A stretch of 64,000 nucleotides of DNA from Lachnospiraceae bacterium. GTDB taxonomy: Bacteria > Bacillota > Clostridia > Lachnospirales > Lachnospiraceae. The stretch is taken from positions 28,629 through 92,628 of the forward strand of contig JBJEOA010000055.1 of assembly GCA_051880475.1 (NCBI GenBank), given 5' to 3'. The position numbers were made by a program, and so were the translations under genes. Below the pieces are notes generated by a model, which searched no databases, was not told the origin of the DNA, and was given only the letters and a program-made list of their open reading frames with translations. Positions 3,099 through 58,357 of the stretch are shown here, one piece after another (position 1 is the first letter of the stretch; each line of letters opens with the position of its first letter).

Positions 3099-3118
3099 AA
3101 AGATAAAGGGAGAGGCGT

Positions 3119-4854: not shown

Positions 4855-4857
4855 ACG

Positions 4858-7154: not shown

Positions 7155-7187
7155 ATATGCTAAGGAAGATAGAAGGGAGAATTCGAC

Positions 7188-7955: not shown

Positions 7956-7995
7956 AAATGATACCGATAAAATATATAAGGAAAGAGGATAAAAG

Positions 7996-8691: not shown

Positions 8692-8692
8692 G

Positions 8693-9406
8693 ATGAAAAA
8701 AAATATTATTGTAATTGCAGGAACGACGGAATCAAGAGAAGTGATAAAAAGTCTTCGAGAGGATGGGGCAAATATTATAGCATCTGTGGCGACAGAGCTT
8801 GGTGCAAAGATGTTAGAAGAGGAAGATATTACGATTTATGTGGGAAGAAAGGACGAGAGTGAATTTCGAGAGTTTTTTTTGCGAGAAAGCCCAGATATGG
8901 TAGTGGACGCGTCACATCCCTTTGCAAAAATTGTCACACAGACGGTAAAAACTGTATGTAAAGAACTCCATATTCCTTATAAGCGAATAAAAAGAGATAA
9001 AGAAGCATACGATTATGAAAACATCATCTGGGTGGCAGACGCTGAGGAAGCTGCAAAGATGGCAGATAAAATTGAAGGTATAATTTTGCTCACAACGGGA
9101 GCAAATACTGCCCCTGTTTATTCAAAAATGGTGAGTAAGATGGAGGACAGATTATATATTCGTGTATTAGATACACAAAAATCTCTTGAGATATGTGAAA
9201 TGGCGGGGATTCCTAGAGAGCATATTATTGCGAAAATGCCGCCGTTTTCTGTGGAAGATAACATTGATTTAATGAAAAAGATAAACGCTGCCGTTTTAGT
9301 GTCAAAAGATAGTGGGAAACAAGGCGGTGTGCAAAATAAGGTGGATGCTTGCAGAGAGCAAAATATTCCGATAATCTTAATCCGAAGACCAGAGAGTGAA
9401 GGATAG
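8693..9406 (+). CDS. cbiJ: Cobalt-precorrin-6A reductase
   Basis: IIVIAGTTESRE N-terminus, DASHPFA motif, 237 aa, operon context. Confidence 0.85.
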   Translation: MKKNIIVIAGTTESREVIKSLREDGANIIASVATELGAKMLEEEDITIYVGRKDESEFREFFLRESPDMVVDASHPFAKIVTQTVKTVCKELHIPYKRIKRDKEAYDYENIIWVADAEEAAKMADKIEGIILLTTGANTAPVYSKMVSKMEDRLYIRVLDTQKSLEICEMAGIPREHIIAKMPPFSVEDNIDLMKKINAAVLVSKDSGKQGGVQNKVDACREQNIPIILIRRPESEG

Positions 9407-9429
9407 AGAAAGCAGTAAGGAGGAAAAAA

Positions 9430-10839: not shown

Positions 10840-10845
10840 AAAAAT

Positions 10846-11853: not shown

Positions 11854-11949
11854 GTAAGCAAAGACGAAGAAAAATTTCTTTTTGCCATTTGTTTAAAGGA
11901 GATAGAAAATGGAAGAATCTGAAAAAATAGCACAGAAAGGAATGGACAG

Positions 11950-33000: not shown

Positions 33001-33604
33001 CCCAGAAAGTTTCTTTGAAATTCTTGGACAAGAGTGCAAAAATCGTCGTGTCAGAGATTTAAAGAGTAAAGTTGCATATTTATATTATTATTCAGATAAA
33101 GAAAGTTTAAGTCAAGAAACGATAGAAACGATAAAAGTGCTTATGAGAGAAATGTTTGGAAATCATATGATGTTTCCTTTCTTCCTTCAATTTAAGGATA
33201 TTGTAGATTTTCCAAAGGGAATTCTTGCAAAAACTTTTGTCACGTATCACGGTGAGAGCAACCAAAATGTGCAATTTTTCTATACCTTAAAAGATGAAAT
33301 TGATACGTATCATCACCGAGTGCAGATGAGAGAGGTATTTGATGGCATTTATGTATATGAAATGTATATCTTCTCAAGTGAAGAATTTGATTATTATATT
33401 ATGATAGATGGAAAAATTCGAAGAGGAAAAGAATATATTACAATCGAAAACTTCTACGAGAAAAATGAGGAGACGAAGAATACAAGATTTGCATTGCTTG
33501 ATCAGATTTTAGAAGAAAAAGATGAAAATAAATCAGAACAAGAGATGGGACAGTATTTGGAGACTTTACAAATCCTAAATGATAATTTAGAAATGATGTT
33601 ATGA
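30062..33604 (+). CDS. 1180-aa protein of unknown function (two N-terminal beta-sandwich-like modules, long helical-repeat body, C-terminal beta module, acidic tail)
   Basis: Long uninterrupted ORF with no P-loop, catalytic or TM motif seen. Repeated module endings GEYEIPYKINIV and EKLIIPIRYKK. Confidence 0.8.
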   Translation: MNDRIIWMTKYQLKQEKFSIALSDSNIEIEVEAGSSYEGSFSMTSDCESEIIGEIISTHDLVEVKNKVIEGKQVEVSYFFKGKLSLVGQEITGSFYLITNAGEYEIPYKINIVAPTLKCSYGKINTLDEFADLTAENWVEARELLFCEDFYNVFLKDDIHLREVYYELIKGKERDCILEEFLKAAGCKEVIKLQCEEQKITLSEEEKHKDICIKKTEWGYIKGNVRMKKGCFGVSCQNFTTSDFSDETLCIHVFVEEDYCGGNINLEDELIIETAYEKLIIPIRYKKSVDEQVTIAKRTDLEVQKAYFTIYKQYLLFRTGKSEFLEAADYIKSSISVLEKKNEEPYFCELLRFHIAILGQEEGLDNFARKIESRRKEYLSMKDIREYYYYLIALYKKDHSSILEAVVQIQDTFEKRCTPISFFFLVYLDKELIQDKYRQYQIIKEFYKQGYCTCYLYFEALELLNQNSNFMEQIGEFEIGLFEWGMRYGYISFSLSYRFTQLVSQEKHFSKRLFRILESLYQVEADSVYLSAICSMLIRGNRISREYHEYFEKGIAANLRLVGLNEYYIRSMDYNSYPILPKTLLVYFTYSNSLDYMERAYLYTNVFLNKEEYEFVYDTYEIKIQEFMKEQLMLGNVNEHLVILYKEFLKDKTEHDIVKLMPNIVFRKKLVCHNENMRGVYVKHDQEGKSIYVPLIDGKCYIDLYTNTYTLGFTDKGGNWYMKGINYEIIELLNQEDYMDICRKQCLEEERVLVHSVESMLNSEEKTEEFVQVGALVLYNRHVKQWVKERAIEYILDYYYERGDFENLKKYLGKITYKNVRPIYRNTLMDYYVSTGEIENAYFGTELYGSGKMNDEQLYYISKFGINIQKNQRDVLTANMAYQAFLGEKYDNQTIEYLMEHYAGKLLDLLRIWNIAKQENIEQSEFEKRILLQALFTRNEQNDQVFEVFLSYYEKEPEGKVIYSYIPYVASGYLIESKKVPESFFEILGQECKNRRVRDLKSKVAYLYYYSDKESLSQETIETIKVLMREMFGNHMMFPFFLQFKDIVDFPKGILAKTFVTYHGESNQNVQFFYTLKDEIDTYHHRVQMREVFDGIYVYEMYIFSSEEFDYYIMIDGKIRRGKEYITIENFYEKNEETKNTRFALLDQILEEKDENKSEQEMGQYLETLQILNDNLEMML

Positions 33605-33751
33605 TGCCAGGGGCAAAAGGTCAAAAAATGGTTCATATTTATATGGTAAGGTATTTGACGTTAGAAACTGCTAAATATGAGGAAAAATAAAGAGAGGCAG
33701 AGTTTGAATGTTTTTAGGATTGCAAAAATAGAAAGAAAGGTTGCATGAGAA

Positions 33752-34834
33752 ATGGCAGAAAAAAAAGATTTAATGTATATCATTGGAATTGATATAAAAG
33801 TCGATCAAGTGCAAATAAGTGTTTTTCAAGAAATCTATAAAGAGCCAATTGAAATTATTAAGCAGTATAAAAATGATTTGTATGAGCAGATAGCACAGGT
33901 TTTTTTAGAAAAAGAAATCCGAATGGAGCAGGTAAGAGAAGTTGTTTTTACGACAGATGAGACGACCAAAAAGGTGAGACAAAGTTATATAGAACTTGCC
34001 AAAAGGCTTGGAGTTCCAAAGGAAAAAATTTCTATTATTACACAGGAAACCGCATATTTACACTATATTTATCGACAAGAAGAAAAAATATGGGATCACA
34101 GAGTATTACTTTTTGATTACGGAAGAGACAAGATTATTTGCAGAAAAATGGAAATCACGCAAAGATCTGTTCCAATGCAGATTCAACTTACCGAGATGGA
34201 TGTATCTGTTCCAGCTTTGTTTACAGGCACGCTAGATAGTAGGGATGAAGTCTTTTCAAAAGTAATTAGAAAAGTAATTGGCAAGGAAGCTATAACGAGT
34301 GTATTTTTAACTGGATCAGGATTTTACGGAAACTGGATGAAAAAATCTTTAAAAGTTTTGTGTTCAGGAAGAAGAGTTTTTTTGGGAGAAAATTTATACT
34401 CAAACGGAGCTTGTTTCTTTAGTGCCTATAAAGATAAGGTGAGAGAACCTGGGGAAGAACCAATTGTAAAAGCGAGAGATTTGGTTATCCACGATATTGG
34501 CTTAATGAGTGGCGATGGCGAGAATGAAAAATTTATTGCCATTACGGAATGTGGAAAAGAATGGTATAATACAAGAGGAAAAATCGAAGTCATATTAGAC
34601 CATGGCAGTCGAATTGAATTCTTATTTAAAAATCGATTTGCAGATGAGATGCAAAAAGAAATTTTAGAAATTTCTTCTCTTCCGGCAAGACCGGATAAAA
34701 CAACGAGACTTGAGATAGAGATTAAATTTCAGGGAGCAAATCAGGGACAGATTTTAGTGAGAGATTTAGGATTTGGTCTGATTTATCCAGCTACCAATAA
34801 AGTATTTATGAAACAATTTACATTATTATCATAG
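33752..34834 (+). CDS. Compact degenerate Hsp70/actin-fold (ASKHA)-like protein
   Basis: IIGIDIKVDQ (phosphate-1-like), LLFDYGRDKI (phosphate-2-like), VFLTGSGF (adenosine-like), and C-terminal RLEIEIKFQGANQGQILVRDLGFG resembling the Hsp70 SBD-beta signature. Confidence 0.7.
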   Translation: MAEKKDLMYIIGIDIKVDQVQISVFQEIYKEPIEIIKQYKNDLYEQIAQVFLEKEIRMEQVREVVFTTDETTKKVRQSYIELAKRLGVPKEKISIITQETAYLHYIYRQEEKIWDHRVLLFDYGRDKIICRKMEITQRSVPMQIQLTEMDVSVPALFTGTLDSRDEVFSKVIRKVIGKEAITSVFLTGSGFYGNWMKKSLKVLCSGRRVFLGENLYSNGACFFSAYKDKVREPGEEPIVKARDLVIHDIGLMSGDGENEKFIAITECGKEWYNTRGKIEVILDHGSRIEFLFKNRFADEMQKEILEISSLPARPDKTTRLEIEIKFQGANQGQILVRDLGFGLIYPATNKVFMKQFTLLS

Positions 34835-43603: not shown

Positions 43604-44842
43604 TTAATCACGTTGGAATAAATCTCTTGTATAAACTTTGTCCATTACATCTGACAATTTATCGGACATACGGTTTGCGATAATAACATTACATACATCT
43701 TTGAAGCGATTAAAATCTTTTTCCACTTTGCTTCCAAAAAATGTTTCATCTTTTAATGTAGGCTCATAAATAATAACTTCTGCTCCCTTTGCTTTTAAGC
43801 GTTTCATAACTCCTTGAATAGAAGATTGTCGGAAATTGTCGGAATTTGCTTTCATTGTGAGACGATATACTCCAATGACAACAGAATTTCCAGGCGTGCC
43901 ATCTCTTCCGGCAGTACCTTCAAAATATCCCGCTTTTTCTAAAATACGCTCTGCAACGAAATCTTTTCTTGTAGAGTTTGATTTTACAATCGCTTCGATA
44001 AGATTTTCAGGGATATCTTCATAGTTAGCGAGAAGTTGTTTTGTATCTTTTGGAAGACAGTATCCGCCATAACCGAAGGATGGATTATTATAATGTGTAC
44101 CAATTCTAGGATCTAGACAAATACCATCAATAATTTGTTTTGTATTAAGTCCACGAGCCTCAGCGTAGCTGTCTAATTCGTTAAAATAGCTGACACGAAG
44201 AGCGAGATAAGTATTGGCAAATAATTTAACAGCCTCCGCCTCAGTAGGATTTGTATATAAAATAGGGATATCTTTTTTAATTGCCCCTTGTGCTAAAAGA
44301 TTTGCAAATGTATGTGCGGCAGCCACAAGACGTTCATCTTCTAGTGGAGCGCCGACAATAATTCTAGAAGGATAGAGATTATCGTATAATGCACGTCCTT
44401 CTCTTAAAAATTCTGGTGAGAAAATGATATTATTTGATTGAAACTTTTTTCGAACAGAGAGAGTATATCCAACTGGTATTGTGGATTTAATTACGATGAT
44501 TGCATTTGGATTATACTCTAGTACTAATTTGATAACAGCTTCTACATTAGTTGTATCAAAATAATTCATTTTTGGGTCGTAATTTGTCGGAGTGCTCACA
44601 ATGACAAAATCTGCATCTGTATATGCCATTTTAGCATCCATCGTTGCTGTTAGATGTAAGTCTTTTTCTGCTAAGTATTGTTCAATTTCAGCATCTATAA
44701 TTGGTGATTTTTTAGAATTAATCATATTCACTTTTTCTGGAATAATGTCTACAGCGTACACTTCATTATGTTGAGCTAAGAGAATCGCATTCGATAATCC
44801 TACATATCCAGTTCCAGCAACTGCAATTTTATAAGAATTCAT
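43604..44842 (-). CDS. ugd: UDP-glucose 6-dehydrogenase
   Basis: [47 protein letters not shown]. Near-collinear with streptococcal HasB as I recall it. Confidence 0.92.
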
Positions 44843-45137
44843 AATATATTATTTCCTTTCTATATTTTAAATTAAATGGGAACGGATTCCCACAGAAACC
44901 TCAAGACTTGATTTTTTAGGTCTTTTATTTATTGTAAAGAAGAAAGAAAGAAATGTCAAGAATTGAGGAAGGATAGTTTGTAAAAGGCAGAAAAATTATT
45001 TGCAATTAAGATTTAGCTTTTTAATCAATTGTAAATTATGCTAGAGTAATGTATACTATTAATTGACATGATATGTCTGATTTATATGTAAAATTTTGAC
45101 CCCAACATCATTATATACTATTTATTGGAGGAAAAAT

Positions 45138-47525
45138 ATGGAGTACAATAAAAATAATGTAGGTATTATTGGATATTGGTTTGCGACTAATTATGGAGGT
45201 GTTGCGAGCTATTATTCCCTTTATACTAAGATAGAAAAATTAGGTTATTCTCCTTTTTTTATAGAAGATACGAACTTACATCAAGATAAAAGAAAAAAAG
45301 AAGCTTTTTCAAGGAAATTTTTTAAAGAGATAGGAGCATCTATTTGTGAGCCATATAAAAAGGAAGAATTAGAAAAGCTGAATGCATATGCGGATACATT
45401 TTTGCTTGGCTCAGATCAAGTTTTTACTGTGACTGGAATAAGCAAACATGGAAAGGTATTTATGATGGAATTTGCAAATCCAGATAAGAAGCGAATTGTT
45501 GTCTCAGGCTCATGTGGCGGAGAAAATATAAGAAAGGAAGGAAATGAAGATTTAGTTAGCTATGTGAGAGAAGAGCTGCAAAAATTTTCAGGAGTTTCTG
45601 TTCGGGAAAGTTCAGGAGTTGATTTAGTTAGAGATAAATTTAGAGTAGATGCAACTTATTTGATTGATCCTATATTTTTTACTAGTCGAGATGAATTTAA
45701 AAGAATTGGAGAAACGGCAAAATTAGAGAAAAAGGAAGAATATATGTTGGCATATATTTTAGATCCGACAGATGATAAGAGAGAGGGAATACAGAAAGTA
45801 TCTGAAATATTAGGATTGAAAAAGAAGATTGCCTTAGATGGAAGACAGTTTACACATGAAGAAAATTCAAAAAAGCTTGATTTAATAGAGGATACATTGC
45901 CAGAATTAGATTTTAAGCAGTGGCTTCATTATTATTCAAATGCTTCGTTTATTTTGACAGATAGTTTTCATGGAATGGCTATGGCACTTATACTTAATAT
46001 TCCATTTATTGTATACATCAATCAAAAGAGAGGATATCAACGTTTTGAGTCTTTGAGACGGACATTTGGTGTGATAGATAGCCGATTAATAAAAAATACA
46101 AGTCAGATTACAAAGAAATTAGTTCGACAAAAAATCAATTTTAAAAAAATTAATGCTGTGATAGAGCAAGAGACGAAAAAATCTGAAGAATGGATAAAAA
46201 AATATTTATCTACTCCAAAAGCAGAACTAGATTCTATTGCTCTGCCAGGAAAGACAGTGAATGAATTACTTTCCAAAAAAATGTGTACGGGATGTGGCGC
46301 ATGTTTGAATGCTTGTCCATGTGATGCTATAAGATTATGTCAGGATGAATGGGGATATTATAGAGCTAAAGTAGAACAAGAAAAGTGCATAGACTGTGGA
46401 AAATGTGCTAAAATTTGTCCGGCGATAAAATCCCCCGTTAAGTTAAATAAAGAGCAGCCAGAGTGTTATGAATTTATTGCAAAAGATTCTAAAACATTAA
46501 TGGCAAGTTCTAGTGGCGGAGCTTTCTCTGTCTTTGCGAGAGAAATATTTAAGAGACAGGGAGCTGTCGTAGGGGCAGCGTGGAGAGATGATTTCTCCGT
46601 AGAACATATTATGATAGAGGATGAAAAGGAACTTCCTAAGTTACAAAAATCAAAGTATTTACAAAGTTATACTGGAATGATTCATTCTCAGGTAAAAGAG
46701 CATTTGAATCAGGGACAGGTCGTTTTATTTACAGGATGTCCATGTCAGGTGGCGGGATTGAAGTCTTACTTAGGGAAGGAATATGATAATTTAATTGCTA
46801 TTGATTTGCTCTGTGGAAATGCTCCGTCCTCTCAGTTTTTCCAAAGATATTTAAAGGAGTCTTTCCCAGAGGGAATAAATAAATATGAATTTCGTAATAA
46901 ATCATTTGGTTATAATGCTAGAACGGTAAAGATAGAGTTAAAAAATGGAAAAACTATCATTCATAAAGAGGGCAAACCACCTAAAGAGGCCGGGAAAACT
47001 ATCATAAAAGAGAAAAATAAAGAAACACCAATCAATGCCAGAAATGATGCGTATCAACAAGTTTATCATAGCCATACGATGTGTGCAACCCACTGTGAAA
47101 AATGTAAATATCAACAAATTCCAAGATATGGAGATTTAACAATAGGAGATTTTTGGGGATTAAGTTCAAAAGATAAAGAAATCAGTGTAAAGAAGGGTGC
47201 CTCTGTAATTCTTTCTAATAACGAAAAGGGAAGTAGTTTTCTGAAATCTTTATCTCAAGATGAAATTCAAGTTTTAAAAGAAGTTCCTCTAGAGTGGATA
47301 GGTGGAAATGGATATGCACTAGAAGGAAAAAAGAATTATTGTTCTGATAAGAGAGATGAGTTTTATGAAGCTGTAAAGAAAATGACCTTTTTAGAGGCGG
47401 TAAGCTATATAGTAGAAAGAGATGAGAAAGAAGAACCGTCAAATCAGACGATAAAAAGAATTCAAAATAAAAAGAACATATATAAAAAAGTAAAAAAATT
47501 AATAAAAAGATGGATGAAAAAATAA
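45138..47525 (+). CDS. Fusion of polysaccharide pyruvyl transferase (N) with 2x[4Fe-4S] ferredoxin plus an F420 hydrogenase/dehydrogenase beta-subunit (FrhB)-like domain (C)
   Basis: N-half: IGYWFATNYGGVASYYSL, LLGSDQVF, VSVRESSG, TDSFHGMAMALILNIPF. From ~nt 46281: CTGCGACLNACPCDAI and CIDCGKCAKICPA. Then SSSGGAFSVFA...KSKYLQS...LFTGCPCQVAGLKSYL...DLLCGNAPS. Start reset to the ATG after GGAGG. Confidence 0.82.
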   Translation: MEYNKNNVGIIGYWFATNYGGVASYYSLYTKIEKLGYSPFFIEDTNLHQDKRKKEAFSRKFFKEIGASICEPYKKEELEKLNAYADTFLLGSDQVFTVTGISKHGKVFMMEFANPDKKRIVVSGSCGGENIRKEGNEDLVSYVREELQKFSGVSVRESSGVDLVRDKFRVDATYLIDPIFFTSRDEFKRIGETAKLEKKEEYMLAYILDPTDDKREGIQKVSEILGLKKKIALDGRQFTHEENSKKLDLIEDTLPELDFKQWLHYYSNASFILTDSFHGMAMALILNIPFIVYINQKRGYQRFESLRRTFGVIDSRLIKNTSQITKKLVRQKINFKKINAVIEQETKKSEEWIKKYLSTPKAELDSIALPGKTVNELLSKKMCTGCGACLNACPCDAIRLCQDEWGYYRAKVEQEKCIDCGKCAKICPAIKSPVKLNKEQPECYEFIAKDSKTLMASSSGGAFSVFAREIFKRQGAVVGAAWRDDFSVEHIMIEDEKELPKLQKSKYLQSYTGMIHSQVKEHLNQGQVVLFTGCPCQVAGLKSYLGKEYDNLIAIDLLCGNAPSSQFFQRYLKESFPEGINKYEFRNKSFGYNARTVKIELKNGKTIIHKEGKPPKEAGKTIIKEKNKETPINARNDAYQQVYHSHTMCATHCEKCKYQQIPRYGDLTIGDFWGLSSKDKEISVKKGASVILSNNEKGSSFLKSLSQDEIQVLKEVPLEWIGGNGYALEGKKNYCSDKRDEFYEAVKKMTFLEAVSYIVERDEKEEPSNQTIKRIQNKKNIYKKVKKLIKRWMKK

Positions 47526-47617: not shown

Positions 47618-48721
47618 GTGAAAAGATATGATTATCTAATTGTAGGAGCGGGATTATTTGGTTCAGTGTTCGCATATGAGATGATGAAAAATGGAAAGAC
47701 ATGTTGTATTATTGATAAAAGAGACCATATTGGAGGAAATATTTACTGTGAGGATATAGATGGAATTCATGTGCATAAGTATGGAGCACATATCTTTCAT
47801 ACCTCAGACAAAGAAATTTGGGATTATATTAATCAATTTGCTGAGTTTAATCACTATATTAATTCTCCAGTGGCTGTATATAAGGACGAGATATATAATT
47901 TACCATTTAATATGAATACGTTTAGTAAGATGTTTCATATTAAAACTCCTCAGGAGGCAAAAGAAAAGATTCAAAATGAGATTAAAGAACTTGGAATTAA
48001 AGAGCCTAAAAATTTAGAGGAACAGGCATTATCCTTAGTAGGTACTACTGTTTATGAAAAATTAATCAAAGGATATACGGAAAAACAGTGGGGAAGAGAT
48101 TGCAAAGATTTACCATCTTTTATTATTAAAAGATTGCCACTTCGCTTTACCTATGACAATAACTATTTTAATGACCGCTATCAGGGAATACCAATTGGCG
48201 GATATACAGCGATTATTGAGAAGCTAATCGAAGGTGCACAAGTGATGCTTAATACAGATTATTTTGAATTTATAAAAGAAAATCAAGATATAGCAGATAA
48301 AATTGTATATACAGGTCCAATTGATCAGTATTATGACTATAAATATGGTGTTTTAGAATATCGCTCAGTCCGTTTTGAACATGAAAAATTAGATATAGAT
48401 AACTATCAGGGAAATGCAGTTGTAAACTACACAGAAAGAGCAATCCCATATACACGAATTATTGAGCATAAACATTTTGAATTTGGGAAACAGCCAGTGA
48501 CTGTGATTTCAAGAGAATATCCAAGTGAGTGGAAATTAGGAGAAGAACCATACTATCCAGTAAATAATACGAGAAATGAGGAGTGTGCTAAAAAGTACAG
48601 AGAGTTAGCGAGTCAAGAAGAAAATATTATATTTGGTGGCAGACTTGGCGAATATCAGTATTATGATATGGATAAAGTGATAAAAGCGGCGTTAGAAGCG
48701 GTGGCAAAGGAAATTGGATAA
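47618..48721 (+). CDS. glf: UDP-galactopyranose mutase
   Basis: YDYLIVGAGLFGSVFAYE, HKYGAHIFHT, RLGEYQYYDMD; GTG start after GTAGGAGG. Confidence 0.92.
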   Translation: MKRYDYLIVGAGLFGSVFAYEMMKNGKTCCIIDKRDHIGGNIYCEDIDGIHVHKYGAHIFHTSDKEIWDYINQFAEFNHYINSPVAVYKDEIYNLPFNMNTFSKMFHIKTPQEAKEKIQNEIKELGIKEPKNLEEQALSLVGTTVYEKLIKGYTEKQWGRDCKDLPSFIIKRLPLRFTYDNNYFNDRYQGIPIGGYTAIIEKLIEGAQVMLNTDYFEFIKENQDIADKIVYTGPIDQYYDYKYGVLEYRSVRFEHEKLDIDNYQGNAVVNYTERAIPYTRIIEHKHFEFGKQPVTVISREYPSEWKLGEEPYYPVNNTRNEECAKKYRELASQEENIIFGGRLGEYQYYDMDKVIKAALEAVAKEIG

Positions 48722-48763: not shown

Positions 48764-49876
48764 ATGGCGAAAGTATCAATTATTGTGCCAACCTATAATG
48801 TAGAGATTTATTTAAGAGAGTGTATGGACAGTATTGTGCGTCAGACATTAAAAGATATAGAAATAATTTGTATTAACGATGGCTCAACAGACCATTCATT
48901 GAGCATATTAAAAGAGTATGCCAAAAATGACAAACGAATTATCATTATTGATAAGGAAAATGGTGGATATGGAATAGGGATGAATATTGGTTTGGACAAA
49001 GCAACTGGAGAATATATTGGTATTGTAGAGCCAGACGATTTCGTACCGTTATATATGTATGAGGATTTGTACAATATTGCAAAAAAAAATGATTTGGATT
49101 TTGTGAAAGCTGATTTTTATAGGTTTACAACAAATGAGGTTACAGGAGATAGAAATTATATATATCACCATTTGGACAATAAAGGAGAGTATTATAATCA
49201 AGTCATTAATCCAAGTGAAACACCTTATGTCACAAAATTTATACTAAATACTTGGAGTGGAATCTATAAAAGAAGTTTTATAGAGCAATATCATATTCGC
49301 CATAATGAAACTCCGGGTGCATCTTTCCAAGATAATGGATTTTTTTGGCAAACATTTATTTATGCTAAGAGATGTATGTTTATTGACAAACCATATTATA
49401 TGAATCGCAGAGATAATCCAGGTTCTTCTGTTAAATCTAAAGAAAAAGTATACTGTATGAATGTCGAATATGAGTTTATTAGAAATATTTTTATGAGAGA
49501 AGAAAATTTAGAGCTATGGAATAGATTCAAATTTTATTATAATCTAAAAAAATATAGAAATTATATGTCGACAATTGAGAGAATAAGCGATGAATATAAG
49601 AGGGAGTATGTCATAGCGATAAGTGAGGAATTTAAAAAAGCTAGAGAAAATAAAGAGTTAGATTTTAATCTTTTAAGTGCCACAGATAGACAAAAACTAG
49701 TTTTTTTAATGGAAGATCCAGATGGATTTTATTATAAATATGCGATACCTGCAAATGAAAAGGTAAAAGAGTTACAAGAGAAACTAGATACGATAGTGAA
49801 CTCAAGAAGTTATAAAGCATGGAAAAAAATGCTAGATATTTTAGAAAAAGGAAAGAAGAAGTTACACAAAAAATAG
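48764..49876 (+). CDS. GT2-family glycosyltransferase (paralogue A)
   Basis: VSIIVPTYNVEIYL...CINDGSTD...GIVEPDD (DxD). C-terminal coiled coil and basic tail. Confidence 0.85.
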   Translation: MAKVSIIVPTYNVEIYLRECMDSIVRQTLKDIEIICINDGSTDHSLSILKEYAKNDKRIIIIDKENGGYGIGMNIGLDKATGEYIGIVEPDDFVPLYMYEDLYNIAKKNDLDFVKADFYRFTTNEVTGDRNYIYHHLDNKGEYYNQVINPSETPYVTKFILNTWSGIYKRSFIEQYHIRHNETPGASFQDNGFFWQTFIYAKRCMFIDKPYYMNRRDNPGSSVKSKEKVYCMNVEYEFIRNIFMREENLELWNRFKFYYNLKKYRNYMSTIERISDEYKREYVIAISEEFKKARENKELDFNLLSATDRQKLVFLMEDPDGFYYKYAIPANEKVKELQEKLDTIVNSRSYKAWKKMLDILEKGKKKLHKK

Positions 49877-49902
49877 AACGTATTTTAAAAGGAGGGAGTA
49901 AA

Positions 49903-51807
49903 ATGAGACCAATTGTTTCCGTTATAGTAACAGTATATAACGGTGAAAAATACTTAAAAAAATGTGTAGATAGTATATTAAATCAAACATTATCGGATAT
50001 AGAGATTATTTGTATAGATAATAACTCTAATGATACATCATTGGAAATATTACAAGAGTATGCAAGCAAAGATAGGCGTATTAGAGTAATTTCACAAAAA
50101 AATATGAAAACGCAAAGCTCTAGAAGTGTTGGGCTTAACCAGGCGAGTGGAAAGTATATACTATTTTTAGAAGATAATGATTTTTTAGATAGAACAATGC
50201 TTGAAGAGCTAACTCAAAAGATAGAAGAAGATGGGGCTGATTTTATCGCTCTTCGCTCAAATCAATTTGTAGATAATATAAAGAAATTTAAAAGAATAGT
50301 AAAAACATTAGATGTGGAGGCTCTACCTCCTTATACTCCATTTAATTTTAGACAAATAACAGCAAATATCTTTTGGACATTTCAGGAAATAACGAGTGAT
50401 AAATTATATAATAGAAATTTCCTTGAGAAAAATCAAGAATATATTAAAAAAGTAATAAAAAACGATACCGTATTTGTTTTTAGTACATTAATTTTAGCAA
50501 AGAAAATAACATATTTAGATAAAGTGCTGGTGCATCAAAATATAGACGACGAGGAATCGGCGTTTGAGAGAAGAGATACTCAAACAAAGCAGTTTTATGA
50601 GACAGTTTTACTTATGAAAGATATGTTGATTGAAACAGGATTTATGGAGGAGCTAGAACAAGATTTTGTAAATTATGCGCTTTCCTTTAGTCTTAGAAAT
50701 CTCAAAAGGATGAGGGGAGCAGAACAAGAGAAAACTTACAAAATTCTAAAGGAAGAAGGATTTGAAAAATTAGGCATTTTAAATAGAGAAGAAGATTATT
50801 TTTATGACTCAAGACATTATGCAGAACTTTTGGATATTTTAAAATATTCTTTTGAGGAATATACAATAAAAATCTCTGTAGTTATCCCAGTTCACAATGC
50901 GGAAAAGTATATTAGAGAGACTCTACTTAGTGTTTTGGAAAATCAAGATATCAATTTAGAAGTAATCTGTGTAGATGATTGTTCTGATGATAATACTTTT
51001 TCTATTTTGAAGGAGTTTGAAAAGAAATATTCTAATGTAAAAGTACTCAAAAATGAGAAAGTTTTATATGCCGGTGAGTCAAGAAATCGTGGTTTAAAGG
51101 TGGCGAAGGGGCAGTATATGCATTTTTTAGATGCAGATGATTTAGTTATAAAAGATGCATATAAGCCAGTGTATCAGATTGCAAAAGAAAATAATCTTGA
51201 TTTTATAAAAACAAAGGTGAAGGCATTTGACGATCAGACTGGGGAGGAAGTAAAAAATGGTTTATATTCTCTTAGCGGATTTGATCCAATGCTAGATGAA
51301 AGACTGATTAATTTTCATCAATTTCCTGGGAAGTTTTTTTCTATGTCGGTTGTTCCTTGGAATGGGTTGTATAAGAGAGAGTTTTTGATGGAGAATGAAA
51401 TAAGATTTAATCATTTATTTTGTGTAAATGATAGATCATTTTTTATCACAGTCTGTGTGTTAGCCAAGAGGATGATGGTAACTAGAAAATTATTAGTAGA
51501 CCATAGAGTAAATATTGCTACTTCCCTAGTAGGAAGACGTGCACAACATTTCGACTGTCAGTTTGAGTCTTATAAATTGATGGAAAAGATATGTGAAGAA
51601 AATCATGTAAACGAAAAGGTTAAATTTGAAATATTAGAGCATGAAATGTATGATTTAATATCTTGGTATAAAAAGTTTAAAGAACAAGGTATTTTACAAG
51701 AAGGAGTACGTGATGAATTAATAAAATTTTTGACGGATTCTAGAATGGAATATTTTGAAAGTTACGGAAAGAAAAGTAGATGGTTACAGTACAAAAGTAT
51801 AATATAG
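49903..51807 (+). CDS. Tandem double-GT2 glycosyltransferase
   Basis: First GT2 domain: VSVIVTVYNGEKYL...CIDNNSNDTS...LEDND. Second GT2 domain: ISVVIPVHNAEKYI...CVDDCSDDNT...LDADD. Start reset to the ATG after AAAGGAGGGAG. Confidence 0.82.
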   Translation: MRPIVSVIVTVYNGEKYLKKCVDSILNQTLSDIEIICIDNNSNDTSLEILQEYASKDRRIRVISQKNMKTQSSRSVGLNQASGKYILFLEDNDFLDRTMLEELTQKIEEDGADFIALRSNQFVDNIKKFKRIVKTLDVEALPPYTPFNFRQITANIFWTFQEITSDKLYNRNFLEKNQEYIKKVIKNDTVFVFSTLILAKKITYLDKVLVHQNIDDEESAFERRDTQTKQFYETVLLMKDMLIETGFMEELEQDFVNYALSFSLRNLKRMRGAEQEKTYKILKEEGFEKLGILNREEDYFYDSRHYAELLDILKYSFEEYTIKISVVIPVHNAEKYIRETLLSVLENQDINLEVICVDDCSDDNTFSILKEFEKKYSNVKVLKNEKVLYAGESRNRGLKVAKGQYMHFLDADDLVIKDAYKPVYQIAKENNLDFIKTKVKAFDDQTGEEVKNGLYSLSGFDPMLDERLINFHQFPGKFFSMSVVPWNGLYKREFLMENEIRFNHLFCVNDRSFFITVCVLAKRMMVTRKLLVDHRVNIATSLVGRRAQHFDCQFESYKLMEKICEENHVNEKVKFEILEHEMYDLISWYKKFKEQGILQEGVRDELIKFLTDSRMEYFESYGKKSRWLQYKSII

Positions 51808-51823
51808 AGTATGGAGGATAGAG

Positions 51824-52951
51824 ATGGCGAAAGTATCAATTATAGTCCCTACGTATAATGTAGAGATGTATTTAGACGAGTGTATGGAAAGTATTACAAG
51901 ACAAACATTGAAAGATATTGAAATCATATGTATTAACGATGGTTCAACGGATAATTCTTTGGAGATTCTAAAGAAATATGCAAAAAAAGATGAGCGTATT
52001 ATCTTGGTTGATAAAAAAAATGGTGGTTATGGAATTGCAATGAATATCGGTCTTGAAAAAGCGACAGGAGAGTATATCGGTATTGTAGAGCCAGATGATT
52101 TTGTGCCTCTTAATATGTATGAGGATTTATATGAGATAGCTAAGAAAAATGATTTGGATTTTGTGAAAGCTGATTTTTATAGATTTAAGAGAGATAGTAA
52201 GACGGGGAATATGGAGTTAAAATACTTTCATTTATCCCAAAAGAGTGAGAATTATAATATAGTATTTAATCCTAGTGAGAGACCAGAGACATTGCGCTAT
52301 GTCATGAATACTTGGAGTGGAATCTATAAGAGAGAATTTCTTAATAAAAATAATATTCGACATCATGAGACACCAGGAGCATCGTTTCAAGATAACGGAT
52401 TTTATTTCCAGACATTTGTATATGGTAAAAGAGCTATGATAGTAGATAAGCCATATTATATGAATCGAAGAGATAATCCAAATTCATCGGTCAATAATAA
52501 AGATAAAGTATACTGTATTAATATTGAGTATGATTATATAAGAGAGATACTTAGACAAGATATTGACATATGGAATCGCTTTAAGTATATGTATTGGGTG
52601 AAAAAATATACGAATTATAGAGCTGCGATAGATAGAATTGGAGATCAGTATAAAAGAGAATATATTATTCAAATGTCTAAGGAATTTAGGCGTGCGAGAG
52701 ATTTAAAAGAACTCAAAAAAGAAGTCTTTAAAGAGCAGGAATGGAATAATATTCAATTTATCCTCTCTGACCCAGATGGATTTTATTATACTATAATTGA
52801 TGATAAGAGTAATGTAGATTTTCCAAAGCGTAATAGAGTAACGAAGCTAGAGAAAGAATTAAAGGAGATTAAGACTTCAAAATCATTTGCGATTGGGCGT
52901 ACGATGACGGCTGTGCCAAGAAAAGTGAGAAAAATAATAAAAGGAAAATAA
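51824..52951 (+). CDS. GT2-family glycosyltransferase (paralogue B of 48764-49876)
   Basis: 104 of the first 120 residues are identical to paralogue A by my count. Same DxD (VEPDD). Coiled coil and basic tail. Confidence 0.85.
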   Translation: MAKVSIIVPTYNVEMYLDECMESITRQTLKDIEIICINDGSTDNSLEILKKYAKKDERIILVDKKNGGYGIAMNIGLEKATGEYIGIVEPDDFVPLNMYEDLYEIAKKNDLDFVKADFYRFKRDSKTGNMELKYFHLSQKSENYNIVFNPSERPETLRYVMNTWSGIYKREFLNKNNIRHHETPGASFQDNGFYFQTFVYGKRAMIVDKPYYMNRRDNPNSSVNNKDKVYCINIEYDYIREILRQDIDIWNRFKYMYWVKKYTNYRAAIDRIGDQYKREYIIQMSKEFRRARDLKELKKEVFKEQEWNNIQFILSDPDGFYYTIIDDKSNVDFPKRNRVTKLEKELKEIKTSKSFAIGRTMTAVPRKVRKIIKGK

Positions 52952-52986
52952 AAAATACTTATTTTCAATGGTAATGGGGGAATAAT

Positions 52987-54384
52987 ATGGAGATAAATAA
53001 TGCAGGAGAGAAAAATAGTAACGAAGAAATAAAAATATCAGTTATAATTCCTGTATATAATACAGAAAAATACATTGAGGAATGTTTAGACTCAGTTATA
53101 GCTCAAACATTAAAAGAGATTGAAATTATTTGTGTGGATGATGGGTCAAGTGATAGTTCCCTTCAAATTTTGGAGAAATATGCACAGGTTGATCAAAGAA
53201 TACAAGTATTGTCTAAAGAAAACGGTGGACAGTCTGCTGCGAGAAATTATGGAATGGAAAAAGCAATAGGTAAATATATTATATTTTTGGACAGCGATGA
53301 TTGGTACACAGACGTTAAAGCATTGCAGACACTATATGAGTATGCACAACAAGAAGACCTTGATGAACTATTTTTTGGGACAAAAGTATTTTTTGAGAAT
53401 GAGGATGTAAGAAAAAATAATTTATTTTTCGAAAAATACTATGAGCGAAAAGCTATGTACAATGGATTAATAGAGAGAGGTCAAGATTTATTTGTTGATT
53501 TTCAAAAAAATAGAAATTTTAAGCCTGGTGTTGTATTGCAAATCTTTAAACGCGAATTTTTGGAGAGGAATCACTTACGTTTTCGAGAACATCTTTTACA
53601 TGAAGATGAAATCTTTTCAATGGAGTGTATTACATTGGCAGATAAAGCTGGATATATAGATTTACCATATTATGGAAGAAGAGTGAGAGAAAACTCTACC
53701 ATGACAAATAAAACGAAAGATAAAAATATTTATGCCCATTATAAATTGGTGAAGATATTAGTAGAGTTTATTGAAAATTGTGAGATTTACAATGAACAAT
53801 ACTACGAACAATTTTATAGACGTATGCTTATTTTGCTGGATAATGCGGCGAAAATGTACCTAAAGGAGATTGAGGAGCGAGGAGAAAACGCAGTCTTAGA
53901 GAAAATCAAGAAAGAAGAACGCTATGATTTTCGAATGATAATGGAAATGGCATGTGACTCTTATACGAAGAGATGTAGGATAGAAGAATATAAAGAAGAA
54001 ACAAAAGAAAATAAAAAACAGATAAAAAAACATCAGCAAAAAATAAAAGAAAAAGAAGCTCAAATAAAAGAGAGAGATTCTCAGATAAAAGAAAGAGATT
54101 CTCAAATGAAAACTCTTTTTGCAGATATAAAAAAGTTTAAAGAAAAAGGAAAAGATTTAGAGAAAAAATTTCAAATGCTCACAGAGGAGAAAAATGAAAT
54201 TATAAAAAAAGATGAAGCGAGTATGAAACAACTGCAAAAAAGAATCGATGAAAAGGATAAGAAGATAAAGGAACTTGAGTTAGAACAAGAAAGAATAAAG
54301 GCATCTTATAGTTATAAAGTTGGAAATGGTATTATGTATTTGCCAAGAAAAGCAAAAAAAATAGTAAAAAAATTTTCAAATTAA
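52987..54384 (+). CDS. GT2-family glycosyltransferase with ~130-aa C-terminal K/E coiled coil
   Basis: ISVIIPVYNTEKYI...CVDDGSSDSS...LDSDD, then the coiled coil (KENKKQIKKHQQKIKEKEAQIKERDSQIKERDSQ...) and basic tail. Confidence 0.85.
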   Translation: MEINNAGEKNSNEEIKISVIIPVYNTEKYIEECLDSVIAQTLKEIEIICVDDGSSDSSLQILEKYAQVDQRIQVLSKENGGQSAARNYGMEKAIGKYIIFLDSDDWYTDVKALQTLYEYAQQEDLDELFFGTKVFFENEDVRKNNLFFEKYYERKAMYNGLIERGQDLFVDFQKNRNFKPGVVLQIFKREFLERNHLRFREHLLHEDEIFSMECITLADKAGYIDLPYYGRRVRENSTMTNKTKDKNIYAHYKLVKILVEFIENCEIYNEQYYEQFYRRMLILLDNAAKMYLKEIEERGENAVLEKIKKEERYDFRMIMEMACDSYTKRCRIEEYKEETKENKKQIKKHQQKIKEKEAQIKERDSQIKERDSQMKTLFADIKKFKEKGKDLEKKFQMLTEEKNEIIKKDEASMKQLQKRIDEKDKKIKELELEQERIKASYSYKVGNGIMYLPRKAKKIVKKFSN

Positions 54385-54402
54385 AACAGAGAGGGAATAA
54401 GT

Positions 54403-55548
54403 ATGAGTAATAAAGTATCGGTAATTATTCCAGTATATAATGTTGAAAAATATTTACGACAATGTATCGACAGTATTTTAAACCAGACATTATCAGAGTT
54501 GGAATTAATTTGCGTGGATGACGGTTCGACAGACTCCTCACTAGAAATTTTGAGGGAATATGAGAAAAAGGATTCTAGAGTAAAAGTTTTACAACAAGAA
54601 AATTTGGGAGCTGGAGCTGCGAGAAATAAAGGATTAAAAATTGCGACAGGAAAATATTTATCTTTTTTGGATTCGGATGACTTCTTTTTGCCTGAGATGT
54701 TAGAGGAAGCGTATAATAAATGCGAGTCATTAAATGCACAAATCTGTGTCTATCAGGTAAAGCGTTATAATGATGAGACAAAAAAAACGTGGTTTGACAA
54801 GGGGTCTTTTCGATATGAGTATATTCCTAAGAAAGAAGTTTTTTCATATAAAGATATGCCTGATTATATATTAGATACTTTTCAAAATTGGGCTTGGAAT
54901 AAACTGATAAGTCATGAGCTAGTAAAAGAAAATAATCTTCAATTTCAAGAAATACTTAGAACAAATGATTTCCTTTTTGTTGCTTTATGTATGACTTTAG
55001 CACAGAGAATTGTTGTGTTGGAAAAGCCACTTGTGTATTACCGCGTTGGCATGAAAAATAATTTGCAGTCGACAAATTATAAATATCCATTAGAATTTTT
55101 AAAAGCATTTAGAGCTGTAAAAAAAGAACTGCGAGAAAGAGGAATTTTTGACGAGATAGAAAGAAGTTATGTCAATAAAATATTGTCAGGCTGTATATAT
55201 AATCTTAAGTCGATAAAAGATAAGGACGCAAAAAGAACTTTATATTATGAATTGAAAGAGAATGCTTTTAATGATTTTGGAATTATGGATAAGCCAGAAG
55301 AATATTTTCACTCTTATAATAAAGAAAACTATGAGCTTTATAAGATGATATGTTCTTTAGAATTTGAAGAGTTTATGAAAGAAACCTCATCAAAGAAGCA
55401 GGGACAAAAATTATCTCAAGCCTCTAAAAAGAAAGAAAAAGAGACAGCCAAAAATTCTAAAAATTCAAAAAAAGGCAAGTTAAATATACTTGGAAAAGTA
55501 AAAAGAGTGATTTCGAAATGCTTTAAGGGAAGAAAAAAACATGAGTAA
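54403..55548 (+). CDS. GT2-family glycosyltransferase with basic disordered tail
   Basis: VSVIIPVYNVEKYL...CVDDGSTDSS...LDSDD; tail KKGKLNILGKVKRVISKCFKGRKKHE. Confidence 0.85.
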   Translation: MSNKVSVIIPVYNVEKYLRQCIDSILNQTLSELELICVDDGSTDSSLEILREYEKKDSRVKVLQQENLGAGAARNKGLKIATGKYLSFLDSDDFFLPEMLEEAYNKCESLNAQICVYQVKRYNDETKKTWFDKGSFRYEYIPKKEVFSYKDMPDYILDTFQNWAWNKLISHELVKENNLQFQEILRTNDFLFVALCMTLAQRIVVLEKPLVYYRVGMKNNLQSTNYKYPLEFLKAFRAVKKELRERGIFDEIERSYVNKILSGCIYNLKSIKDKDAKRTLYYELKENAFNDFGIMDKPEEYFHSYNKENYELYKMICSLEFEEFMKETSSKKQGQKLSQASKKKEKETAKNSKNSKKGKLNILGKVKRVISKCFKGRKKHE

Positions 55549-56647
55549 AATAAAGGTGTCAATTATCATTCCGATATATAATGCAGAAAATTATTTGAGA
55601 AAAACATTAAATGATATTATAAGCCAATCATTAAAAGAAATAGAAATTATTTGTGTAGATGATGGCTCTACAGATAATTCGAGGAAAATTATAAAAGAAT
55701 ATCAAAAAAAAGATTCTAGAATACAATTAATATGTCAAAAAAATCAATATGCAGGTGTAGCTAGAAATAATGGATTTTTGCATGCAAGAGGAGAATATAT
55801 CTTGTTTTGGGATGCAGATGATAGATTTAAAAAACAGGCGGCACAGAAAATGTATTTTCAGGCAAAAAAAGTGGATGCAGATATTTGTGTATGCAATGCC
55901 CAGCAGTTTGATAGTGAAAATCGTATTTTTTCTACAGATGTTTATTTAAGAAAAAATATGTTGCCAAACGCAAATGTTTTTAATAAATATGATATACCAG
56001 AATATATTTTCAATTGGACAACAAATGTTCCGTGGAATAAAATGTATAAAAAGACATTCATCCAACAGTACGGTTTGAAGTTTCAAAATTTACGTCAAGC
56101 AAATGACACATATTTTACAATAATGGCGTTTTTTTTGGCAGAGAAAATTACTTATGTCGATGAGGTACTCATTTCATATCGGATTAATAATAAGGAGAGT
56201 TTAACTGGGAGAGCTTCTGAGGCAAATTTATGTGCGTATCAATCCTATATGGACACATTTGAAGAATTACGAAATTATGAGGAATATGAGTTAGTAAAAA
56301 AGAGTTTCCTTAATCGAACCGTTAACGGTTTTTTACATGCGCTTGATATCCAGCGATGTTTTCAATCATACGAGCAGATGTTTCAAAAAATAAAATCAGA
56401 AGGAATAAAGATATTGCAAATAAATGAGATGCCAGAAGAAGATTTTCATTATGCTGTGCAGTGCCAAGATATAAAAAATATGATGGAAAACTCAGCACAA
56501 GACTTTTTGCTTTTAAAGGCAAATTCAAGAAAATTAGAAATGGAGCAAATAGTAAGAAAATTTCATAGTTTAAAGATTTATAAACTAAGACATACGTTAT
56601 TAGGGCTCCTTTCTAAAATAAAGAGGAAGTCTCATAAGAAAAATTGA
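55541..56647 (+). CDS. GT2-family glycosyltransferase
   Basis: VSIIIPIYNAENYL...CVDDGSTDNS...WDADD; 8-nt overlap with the previous gene; tail LLSKIKRKSHKKN. Confidence 0.85.
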   Translation: MSKIKVSIIIPIYNAENYLRKTLNDIISQSLKEIEIICVDDGSTDNSRKIIKEYQKKDSRIQLICQKNQYAGVARNNGFLHARGEYILFWDADDRFKKQAAQKMYFQAKKVDADICVCNAQQFDSENRIFSTDVYLRKNMLPNANVFNKYDIPEYIFNWTTNVPWNKMYKKTFIQQYGLKFQNLRQANDTYFTIMAFFLAEKITYVDEVLISYRINNKESLTGRASEANLCAYQSYMDTFEELRNYEEYELVKKSFLNRTVNGFLHALDIQRCFQSYEQMFQKIKSEGIKILQINEMPEEDFHYAVQCQDIKNMMENSAQDFLLLKANSRKLEMEQIVRKFHSLKIYKLRHTLLGLLSKIKRKSHKKN

Positions 56648-57156: not shown

Positions 57157-57235
57157 CATAAAATCAGAATCTTTTTATCAAAACAAATTCAAGTGAAAAT
57201 CCGATTTTCTTATTTTGATAAAAAAGGACAGTTTT

Positions 57236-58357
57236 ATGCGAAAGTACGAAAGAAAACATAATATTATATTTAAAAAATTAGAGGAAGTGAAAAATAAAGT
57301 TATTATGAGAAGGATAAAGATTTATGGTACGTTTGGACCAAATTGCAATAAAAAAGAGATATTAGAACAGATGATAGATGCAGGAATGACGGGGATTCGC
57401 CTTAATTTGTCACATACAAATTTAGTAGATTCGAAAGAGTGGATTGAAAATTTAAAAATGGCAAGTGAAAAAACAGGGAAAAAAATAGATTTGGCAATTG
57501 ATTTAGAAGGACCTGAACTGCGTATTGGTGAGGTGGATGGAAAAATAAATGTACATCAGAAAGATAAGTTATATCTTGGGGCAGCTCAGATAGATGATTC
57601 TTTTGTGGATTATTCATCCAATTTAGGAGAAAAATGGATGGAGCGTGAAAAAAATTTTATAGCTATACCTAAATGTTTAGCAGAAAAGTTAAAGGTAGGG
57701 CAGGAAATTTCTATCAATGATGGAATTGTCAAATTAGTAGTAGATGAATTAGAGTCTGGCACTGCAGTCTGTACAGTAAAAACGGAGGGAGAAATTTCTT
57801 CTAGAAAAAGTATTTCAATTGATGGAGTGCAGGTAGATAATCCAGTTTTGACAAAGAAAGATTTCAGTAATTTAGCAGCAGCAAGAGAGTACGGAGTGAC
57901 AGAAGTAATGCTTCCGTTTGTTCGGGGAGAGAAAGATATAGAGGAAGTAAGAACTGTGTTAAAAGAGCTGGATTTAGATGATATTAAGATTTTGGCAAAG
58001 ATAGAACATCAAGAAGGGGTACAAAATATAGAAAATATTATTGGAAAAGCAGACTGTATCGTAATTGCAAGAGGTGATCTTGGCAATCGTTTTCCAATCT
58101 GGAAAGTGCCAGGAATTCAAAAGATGATTTCTAAAAAATGTCGGGAAAAGAATCAAGAATTTATGGTAGTAACTCAGATGTTAAATAGTATGATACAAAA
58201 TCCAACACCGACGAGAGCGGAAGTACTTGATATATATAATGCGGTGTTAGATGGTGCAACCTCGCTTATGGTGACAGGGGAGACCGCAGTTGGAAAATAT
58301 CCTGTGGAAGTAATAAAATATATGACTAAAATAGCAAAAGAGGCTATTGAAAACTAA
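57236..58357 (+). CDS. Pyruvate-kinase-like protein lacking the C-terminal domain
   Basis: PK A/B-domain motifs: MRRIKIYGTFGP, IRLNLSHTN, KILAKIEHQEG, VIARGDLG, VVTQMLNSM, PTRAEVLDIYNAVLDGATSLMVTGETAVGKYP. The protein ends right after the last A-domain helix. ATG 57236 has AAGGA at 7 nt. PK homology begins at the Met encoded at 57305, which has no RBS. Confidence 0.75.
   Translation: MRKYERKHNIIFKKLEEVKNKVIMRRIKIYGTFGPNCNKKEILEQMIDAGMTGIRLNLSHTNLVDSKEWIENLKMASEKTGKKIDLAIDLEGPELRIGEVDGKINVHQKDKLYLGAAQIDDSFVDYSSNLGEKWMEREKNFIAIPKCLAEKLKVGQEISINDGIVKLVVDELESGTAVCTVKTEGEISSRKSISIDGVQVDNPVLTKKDFSNLAAAREYGVTEVMLPFVRGEKDIEEVRTVLKELDLDDIKILAKIEHQEGVQNIENIIGKADCIVIARGDLGNRFPIWKVPGIQKMISKKCREKNQEFMVVTQMLNSMIQNPTPTRAEVLDIYNAVLDGATSLMVTGETAVGKYPVEVIKYMTKIAKEAIEN

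Follow-up and report, generated by a model that had tools for sequence, protein, structure and literature searches.

A pyruvyl transferase joined to a ferredoxin domain and an FrhB-like flavoprotein module in a Lachnospiraceae glycan locus: a candidate lactyl-ether synthase

The window analysed here is a stretch of 64,000 nucleotides of contig JBJEOA010000055.1 from a Lachnospiraceae bacterium. It contains a fused gene whose product joins, in this order, a polysaccharide pyruvyl transferase, a 2x[4Fe-4S] ferredoxin domain, an FrhB-like flavoprotein module and a Lys-rich helical tail. The fusion gene leads a run formed by glf and six family-2 glycosyltransferase (GT2) genes (47618-56647). A divergent dehydrogenase gene lies on its other side, and beyond that gene a spoIIAA-spoIIAB-sigF operon is found. 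The positions of the features are listed in Table 1. The subject of this report is the chemistry that such a protein may carry out on a bacterial glycan.

Table 1. Position of the fused gene, its domains and motifs, and other genes in the window
Feature	Position	Strand	Remarks
Whole fused gene	45138..47525	+	795 aa; translation, Pfam, homologues, AlphaFold model
Shine-Dalgarno sequence GGAGG	45128..45132	+	6 nt ahead of the ATG at 45138; read from the sequence
PS_pyruv_trans domain	45189..46022	+	residues 18-295; PF04230, E 1.8e-24; fold extends to about residue 358
Two CxxCxxCxxxCP motifs (2x[4Fe-4S] ferredoxin domain)	46284..46421	+	residues 383-428; Fer4 family matches
FrhB/FdhB-like flavoprotein module	46479..47270	+	residues 448-711; PF04432 68.1 bits, PF04422 weak
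Motif IGYWFATNYGG	residues 11-21		
Motif LLGSDQVF	residues 89-96		
Motif VSVRESSG	residues 153-160		
Motif TDSFHGMAMAL	residues 274-284		
First Cys-cluster motif CTGCGACLNACP	residues 383-394		begins at nt 46284 (first-pass annotation: about 46281)
Second Cys-cluster motif CIDCGKCAKICP	residues 417-428		
Motif SSSGGAFS	residues 457-464		
Motif KSKYLQS	residues 504-510		
Motif GCPCQVAGL	residues 533-541		
Motif DLLCGNAPS	residues 556-564		
UDP-glucose/GDP-mannose dehydrogenase family gene	43604..44842	-	divergent from the fusion; Pfam UDPG_MGDP_dh N, central and C domains
glf, UDP-galactopyranose mutase (galactofuranose supply)	47618..48721	+	PF03275 GLF, E 1e-84
Six consecutive soluble family-2 glycosyltransferase genes	48764..56647	+	Pfam Glycos_transf_2; one has two GT2 domains
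Pyruvate-kinase-barrel gene	57215..58357	+	380 aa; barrel only (PF00224, E 4e-85), without the C-terminal domain
DUF5717/DUF5716 pair	30062..34834	+	DUF5717 protein of 1180 aa
Cobalamin biosynthesis operon	24..15078	+	first 15 kb of the window

The gene is read as a single stop-free frame of 795 codons. An alternative upstream TTG start is possible at 45096, without a ribosome-binding site. Neither a signal peptide nor a membrane segment was found in the 795-aa protein, which is therefore taken to be cytoplasmic. The PS_pyruv_trans family was matched with 87.6 bits against a cut-off of 25.3, residues 18-295 covering profile positions 1-278 of 280. Fer4 scored 32.8 bits (cut-off 21.1), with 4Fe-4S ferredoxin families on residues 380-430. 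FrhB_FdhB_C (PF04432) was matched over residues 529-711 at 68.1 bits against a cut-off of 23.3, and FrhB_FdhB_N (PF04422) over residues 448-511 at 18.4 bits, below its cut-off of 22. The top NCBIfam matches are FpoF-type F420H2 dehydrogenase subunits, all far under their cut-offs (FpoF 54.7 bits vs 475). The first-pass annotation of this DNA, made from the letters alone, had called a pyruvyl transferase continued by a ferredoxin/FrhB module; that call is correct, all eleven quoted motifs were located, and Pfam agrees.

A homologue search covering 5.8 billion proteins returned more than 550 matches to the fusion protein, and all 120 listed carry both PF04230 and PF04432. Among the matches listed, colinearity extends over 94-100% of the query in most cases, with identities from 97% down to 40%; for two of them the best local alignment spans only 49%. 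The databases contain the fusion in abundance, under generic names. With a length of about 890 aa or more, most fused homologues possess an extra conserved C-terminal domain of approximately 100-130 residues after residue ~760, which by sequence is probably beta-rich and in some cases has precomputed CBM_4_9 matches. The 795-aa protein is without that domain, its end being a Lys-rich helix modelled with low confidence.

The conservation alignment was made from 60 colinear homologues (40-97% identity) with both halves in one chain. Across them all eight ferredoxin cysteines are invariant. In the transferase domain the motifs GSDQ, RE, DSxHG and RGxxR do not vary, and the invariant residues are G12, W14, N18-G20, G91-Q94, R156, E157, D275, S276, H278, G279, R298 and R302. 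The FrhB module retains S457, G460, G461, K506, Y507, Q509, P535, C536, Q537, C559, C649, C653 and C656. The five cysteines of this list (536, 559, 649, 653, 656) come in addition to those of the ferredoxin domain and, judged by their conservation, could be the site of a third Fe-S cluster. The SSSGG, KSKY and PCQ motifs align with the flavin-binding F420H2-oxidase half of the F420-dependent sulfite reductase Fsr. Since the cofactor motifs are invariant, the FrhB module appears to be catalytically maintained.

An AlphaFold model computed from the homologue alignment reached a mean predicted local distance difference test value (pLDDT) of 90.4 and a predicted template modelling score (pTM) of 0.80. 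With Foldseek, the C-terminal half was matched to whole FrhB-type subunits (8rja_E, 2e-14; 7npa; 7bkb_E; 5dqr; 9r51_B), the families being Fsr, FdhB, FrhB and the plant 7-hydroxymethyl chlorophyll a reductase (HCAR, 5dqr). The N-terminal half was matched to GT-B enzymes, including yeast Pvg1p (5ax7_A, E 2.5e-6, template modelling score by target 0.54).

In most genomes the two modules are encoded by separate adjacent genes, and one relative has a split form, with transferase and ferredoxin in one open reading frame (ORF) and the FrhB part in the next, overlapping ORF (L034:88-2395). Both facts would suit an assembly or sequencing artefact by which two neighbouring genes had been merged. Against it stand the uninterrupted frame, the many stops that interrupt the other two frames where the domains join, a 97%-identical protein of the same length (795 aa) known from independent assemblies, hundreds of colinear fused homologues in the databases, and an inter-domain helix that the AlphaFold model gives with high confidence. 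The artefact explanation was rejected, its probability being close to nil, and the single chain proposed at first is upheld.

Linkage of the two modules was surveyed in 300 genomes of the same class, Clostridia, in which FrhB_C was matched in 75 and PS_pyruv_trans in 214. Stretches of 5 kb on each side of the FrhB-like genes were scanned with profiles built from the homologues, supplemented by a Pfam check and by a second, iterated profile to catch divergent PF04230 neighbours. The 90 FrhB-like ORFs comprise eight fusions with a pyruvyl transferase, 43 genes adjacent to one on the same strand at a distance of at most 150 bp, and 22 with one within 5 kb. The first-pass annotation had raised the question of how often the modules are fused and how often adjacent; fused and adjacent cases together make up 51 of 90. 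Among the 75 closest relatives of the fusion's transferase domain, 59 are FrhB-linked. The corresponding figure is about 7 for the 150 best Pfam-scoring transferases, which were taken as CsaB-type.

The architecture varies among the surveyed genomes. One 818-aa protein has the reversed order ferredoxin-FrhB-transferase (L031:3690-6143), a fusion of 770 aa is without the ferredoxin domain (L009:3450-5759), and in a genome without FrhB the pyruvyl transferase is fused to LicD (L112:3938-5884, 649 aa). In a FastTree phylogeny with long branches, built from 101 transferase domains of which most were gathered around FrhB genes, the fusions occupy several separate parts of the tree and occur in both domain orders. 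Judged from this tree, the transferase-reductase fusion is one that arose repeatedly and in both orders.

In Enterobacteria the two modules occur as a gene pair, for which a genetic tie to glucolactilic acid dates from 2006. The 2019 E. coli O-antigen review names the product of the pair UDP-GlcLA, an assignment by genetics only. According to that review, lactyl groups are present on the O58, O124, O146, O69 and O150 antigens and pyruvate ketals on O112ac, O149 and O156, and O164 equals O124 minus its lactyl group, owing to a wfeP frameshift. Clusters were reached by an exact gnd word, a search for PF04432 in Enterobacteriaceae (2 of 401 genomes matched) and then blastn against E. coli. The O69 cluster of strain 2013C-3252, for a lactyl-ether antigen, has both a pyruvyl transferase and an FrhB-like gene. 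The O124/O164 cluster of TUM18780 has an FrhB-like gene immediately upstream of a transferase that is split into two coding sequences, which fits the reported frameshift that removes the lactyl group present in O124 and lost in O164. In both clusters the pair is located between galF and gnd. The O149 cluster of UMNK88, for a pyruvate-ketal antigen, has a pyruvyl transferase, and PF04432 was not found in the chromosome. Colanic acid of K-12 carries a pyruvate ketal; PF04432 was not found in this strain, PF04230 being matched in E. coli as a control, and other E. coli strains have wcaK annotated as the pyruvyl transferase for colanic acid.

The transferase domain of the fusion can be aligned over its full length with the transferase of O69 (E 4e-23) and has no significant BLASTP similarity to WcaK (E 0.74). 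The reductase half shares 25% identity with the O69 FrhB-like protein (E 7e-10). In the FastTree phylogeny, with its biased sample, the transferase domain of the fusion shares a clade with the enzymes of E. coli O69 and E. coli IAI1 (15 members, support 99, all FrhB-linked), the unlinked transferases standing elsewhere.

MurA transfers an enolpyruvyl group from phosphoenolpyruvate (PEP) to a sugar hydroxyl, and MurB then reduces the resulting vinyl ether by flavin hydride to a lactyl ether. The MurA reaction is summarised in PMC6801904. The reading considered the most probable, and held with somewhat better than even confidence, is that the fusion protein is a cytoplasmic, self-contained, MurA/MurB-like two-step lactyl-ether (1-carboxyethyl) synthase which acts on a galactofuranose-containing wall polymer. 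In the first step, as suggested by its family, the PF04230 domain would move the C3 unit of PEP to a sugar hydroxyl of the growing galactofuranose-containing polymer. Phosphate would be released and an enolpyruvyl (carboxyvinyl) ether, or an oxocarbenium equivalent, would result with no closure to a cyclic ketal. In the second step, as suggested by the fusion and by the E. coli correlation, the C-terminal module would be fed by a low-potential donor, probably reduced ferredoxin. Two [4Fe-4S] clusters, and probably a third, would conduct the electrons to the flavin, and transfer of hydride from the flavin to the vinyl carbon, as in MurB, would yield the lactyl ether. Transfer followed by reduction to a lactyl ether had been the suggestion of the first-pass annotation. 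It is the reading best supported by the data, in a correlative manner, through the linkage, the repeated fusion in both orders and the split between lactyl and ketal antigens in E. coli. The accompanying remark that a role of FrhB-like genes in glycan loci had not been established biochemically holds insofar as no biochemical study of the transferase and FrhB-like pair was found in the searchable literature; a genetic link, however, was already known. The 2019 review on pyruvylation does not mention F420, a reductase or lactyl groups.

Several points weigh against the lactyl-ether reading. Seventeen of the 90 FrhB-like ORFs, several of them at contig ends, are without a transferase within 5 kb, and 16 of the 75 closest transferase relatives are without an FrhB gene. 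No other reductase was present among ten neighbours or fused partners scanned in FrhB-free genomes; the partners there are glycosyltransferases, a polymerase (Wzy), an ATP-grasp protein and a LicD domain. On the tree the unlinked transferases do not group together (9 changes for 11 rows), so that the transferase clade is not visibly specialised for a different chemistry, and the tree itself is a FastTree tree with sampling biased towards FrhB neighbourhoods. The E. coli correlation consists of two lactyl serogroups and two ketal cases only. In the searchable literature PF04230 enzymes are described only as ketal-forming (e.g., WbbZ), and no report of one that releases an enolpyruvyl ether was found there. 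Finally, the chemistry, the acceptor sugar and the electron donor of the fusion are all inferred.

These points bear on a rival reading, in which the transferase carries out plain ketal pyruvylation in the manner of CsaB, WcaK or WbbZ, and the Fe-S flavoprotein has a separate redox step, redox control or a structural role. It agrees with the relatives that have neither an FrhB partner nor, where scanned, another reductase, with the spread of unlinked transferases over the tree, and with the biochemically tested PF04230 enzymes, such as WbbZ, that form ketals with PEP alone. Ketal formation requires no redox step, yet fusion or adjacency was seen for 51 of the 90 ORFs in the survey and fusion has been repeated in both orders. 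The invariant cofactor motifs speak for a catalytic module, and the E. coli pair tracks lactyl rather than ketal antigens. Because WbbZ and similar ketal transferases require PEP alone, a tightly coupled reductase is hard to explain otherwise. The ketal reading is considered unlikely.

A second rival keeps the transfer and the reduction and changes the product, which would be another reduced pyruvate-derived decoration such as an N-(1-carboxyethyl) amino sugar, or would arise by action of the reductase on the acceptor sugar. The architecture specifies merely a PEP-type transfer and a two-electron reduction. O antigens of enterobacteria are known to include N-carboxyethyl groups; for Proteus lipopolysaccharide, PMC11989651 lists Nε-[(R)-1-carboxyethyl]-L-lysine. 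The sole testable matches of structure to genes are, however, O-linked lactyl ethers, and no aminotransferase or amino-sugar genes were found at the locus of the fusion. This second rival is held to be quite improbable.

The lactyl-ether reading calls for an electron donor. The source genome has 2.7 Mb and is 99.6% complete; it contains one pyruvyl transferase and one FrhB-like module above cut-off. A second, sub-threshold FrhB_C-like match of 20.3 bits lies in a 288-aa frame (G000:C22:49277-49468). In this genome CofE (PF01996) gave no match and CofH (TIGR03551) none over its cut-off, and dependence on F420 was rejected for it. As no genes of F420 biosynthesis were found, F420 is an improbable redox partner and the reductase module is probably ferredoxin-driven; the 2x[4Fe-4S] domain within the chain suggests that ferredoxin or another one-electron donor of low potential feeds it. 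HCAR, an enzyme of plants and cyanobacteria, is a ferredoxin-dependent member of the FrhB family that does not use F420, and BciB, an 8-vinyl reductase, is a ferredoxin-driven flavin/Fe-S enzyme that reduces a vinyl C=C bond. With HCAR, a structural match of the fusion, and BciB in the FrhB family, ferredoxin-driven reductases independent of F420 have a precedent. If this reading holds, the annotation 'coenzyme F420 hydrogenase' is misleading in organisms without F420.

No terminator-like site was present on the forward strand between the fusion and glf, and the signals of a promoter and terminator scan were not above chance. The six GT2 proteins contain no membrane-spanning windows. No flippase (wzx), polymerase (wzy), transporter or priming transferase was found at the locus. 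A 54%-identical fused homologue (L102) stands in a different setting, with an ABC2-type permease, a 587-aa ATP-binding cassette (ABC) ATPase, GT2 genes, glf and a LytR-CpsA-Psr (LCP) ligase. This arrangement suggests a wall polysaccharide exported by an ABC transporter and attached to peptidoglycan. By analogy with pyruvate in Klebsiella O1b, it may be speculated that the modification made by the fusion is a cap at the chain end. A wider proposal appears evenly balanced: that the fusion makes lactyl ethers as one polypeptide powered by ferredoxin, and is non-homologous to MurA/MurB and widespread in gut and rumen anaerobes. Under this proposal its task in the present lineage may be to place a cap or decoration on a wall polysaccharide that contains galactofuranose, leaves the cell through an ABC transporter and is anchored by an LCP ligase.

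In the relative, the fused gene lies beside the ABC2 permease, the LCP ligase and the unusually long ATPase (L102:714-3271 and 16870-18345). The ATPase part of the latter corresponds to residues 340-584, and its extra N-terminal half might recognise a chain-end cap. A DUF5717 gene is found just past the wall-polysaccharide locus of this relative (L102:19931-22709). The DUF5717/DUF5716 pair of the window precedes the fusion by about 10 kb, and its linkage to the glycan locus may be conserved. The pyruvate-kinase-barrel gene begins 570 bp past the last GT2 gene; the presence of an enzyme of PEP/pyruvate near a PEP-consuming glycan locus is maybe a coincidence. The long cobalamin operon includes a fused hemC-cobA-hemD, cobS, cobT, cbiD, cbiK, two CobB/CobQ-type amidotransferase genes, cbiB and a cobQ-cobO fusion.

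Further E. coli loci with the pair were observed. In IAI1 (NC_011741.1) the region between galF and gnd (L100:8516-16577) encodes a flippase, the FrhB-like protein, the pyruvyl transferase, an EpsG-type polymerase and glycosyltransferases, and a mannose-1-phosphate guanylyltransferase gene lies past wzzB. If the lactyl-ether reading is true, the IAI1 antigen should bear a lactyl ether. Plasmid pBDSF8-3_3 (L101, 24.8 kb), which is rich in insertion sequences, carries fragments of a capsule-type locus with a flippase, an FrhB-like gene and a pyruvyl transferase. A second copy of the transferase (99%) follows a 72-aa fragment of the nitroreductase family, the duplication beginning at the transferase. 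This nitroreductase-transferase pair was dismissed as a mosaic, its transferase duplicating the FrhB-linked gene at 99%.

As acidic decorations of O antigens and capsules, lactyl (1-carboxyethyl) ethers have been known for a long time, and they affect antigenicity and charge. They also occur in exopolysaccharides of Butyrivibrio; a search of the literature on carboxyethyl groups in that genus returned nothing relevant. No characterised enzyme for lactyl ethers besides MurA/MurB was found in the searchable literature. If the reading is true, the fusion supplies the enzymology hitherto missing for 1-carboxyethyl sugars, which have long been described from polysaccharides of bacteria, and the pair of PF04230 and FrhB-like genes becomes a genomic marker that predicts lactyl-bearing glycans. 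The pair is present in about a quarter of the sampled Clostridia genomes and also in E. coli and Klebsiella serotypes. The natural fusion is soluble and has the transferase, the electron-transfer domain and the reductase all in a single chain, which makes it convenient for a demonstration in vitro.

Compared with known systems, the fusion resembles MurA/MurB in reaction logic only. The folds are unrelated, GT-B and FrhB-type in the fusion, which has no Pfam or NCBIfam match at E <= 0.01 to an EPSP-synthase (MurA) or MurB-type family. Electrons are drawn from NADPH in MurA/MurB and are predicted to come from Fe-S clusters and ferredoxin in the fusion; the substrate is a nucleotide sugar there and probably a lipid-linked or growing glycan here. 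HCAR shares the FrhB-type fold with the C-terminal half (5dqr, E 3.6e-9). HCAR and BciB differ in that their substrates, chlorophyll precursors, are unrelated, that they have no transferase partner and that their identity to the fusion is approximately 16-18%.

The ketal transferases WbbZ (Klebsiella O1b), CsaB (Paenibacillus alvei), WcfO, WcaK and Pvg1p share with the fusion the Pfam family and the GT-B-type fold, and PEP is the presumed donor. WbbZ is further alike in that it acts on a galactan from an ABC-transporter pathway. These enzymes stand alone and form cyclic ketals without a redox partner, whereas the domain of the fusion is covalently joined to an Fe-S flavoprotein.

A survey of Klebsiella cps loci was all that full-text searches returned on pyruvyl transferases in connection with F420, capsules, O antigens or lactic acid. 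Its 79 K types include only one 'coenzyme F420 hydrogenase' gene (HG203), which is confined to K66 and listed beside the K66-specific pyruvyltransferase gene wcqF. The same survey gives for K22/K37 the type-specific pyruvyl transferase gene wclZ and a nitroreductase-family gene, HG127; K22 has 4-O-[(S)-1-carboxyethyl]-GlcA according to the title of a paper cited in PMC3857182. Judged from these gene lists, K66 and K22/K37 resemble the fusion in pairing a type-specific pyruvyl transferase with a type-specific flavoprotein-type reductase. The genes are separate there, and the reductase of K22/K37 comes from another family.

The fusion is alike in kind to the enterobacterial pair for glycolactilic acid, in which a PF04230 transferase and an FrhB_FdhB-type Fe-S flavoprotein are encoded in one glycan cluster. 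Its members are wfeP with the adjacent FrhB-like gene of O124/O164, the pair of O69 and, by the title of a paper, that of Shigella boydii 17. The pair consists of two proteins, and here one polypeptide has a full 2x[4Fe-4S] domain in between; in the aligned region the O69 FrhB-like protein, unlike the fusion, keeps only the first cluster motif. The host of the fusion is a Gram-positive spore-former, its locus is without wzx and wzy, and identity to the enterobacterial pair is about 24-25%. The O124/O164 cluster contains glf, as does the locus of the fusion. The fusion is a joined variant of a system already linked genetically to lactyl ethers in Enterobacteria.

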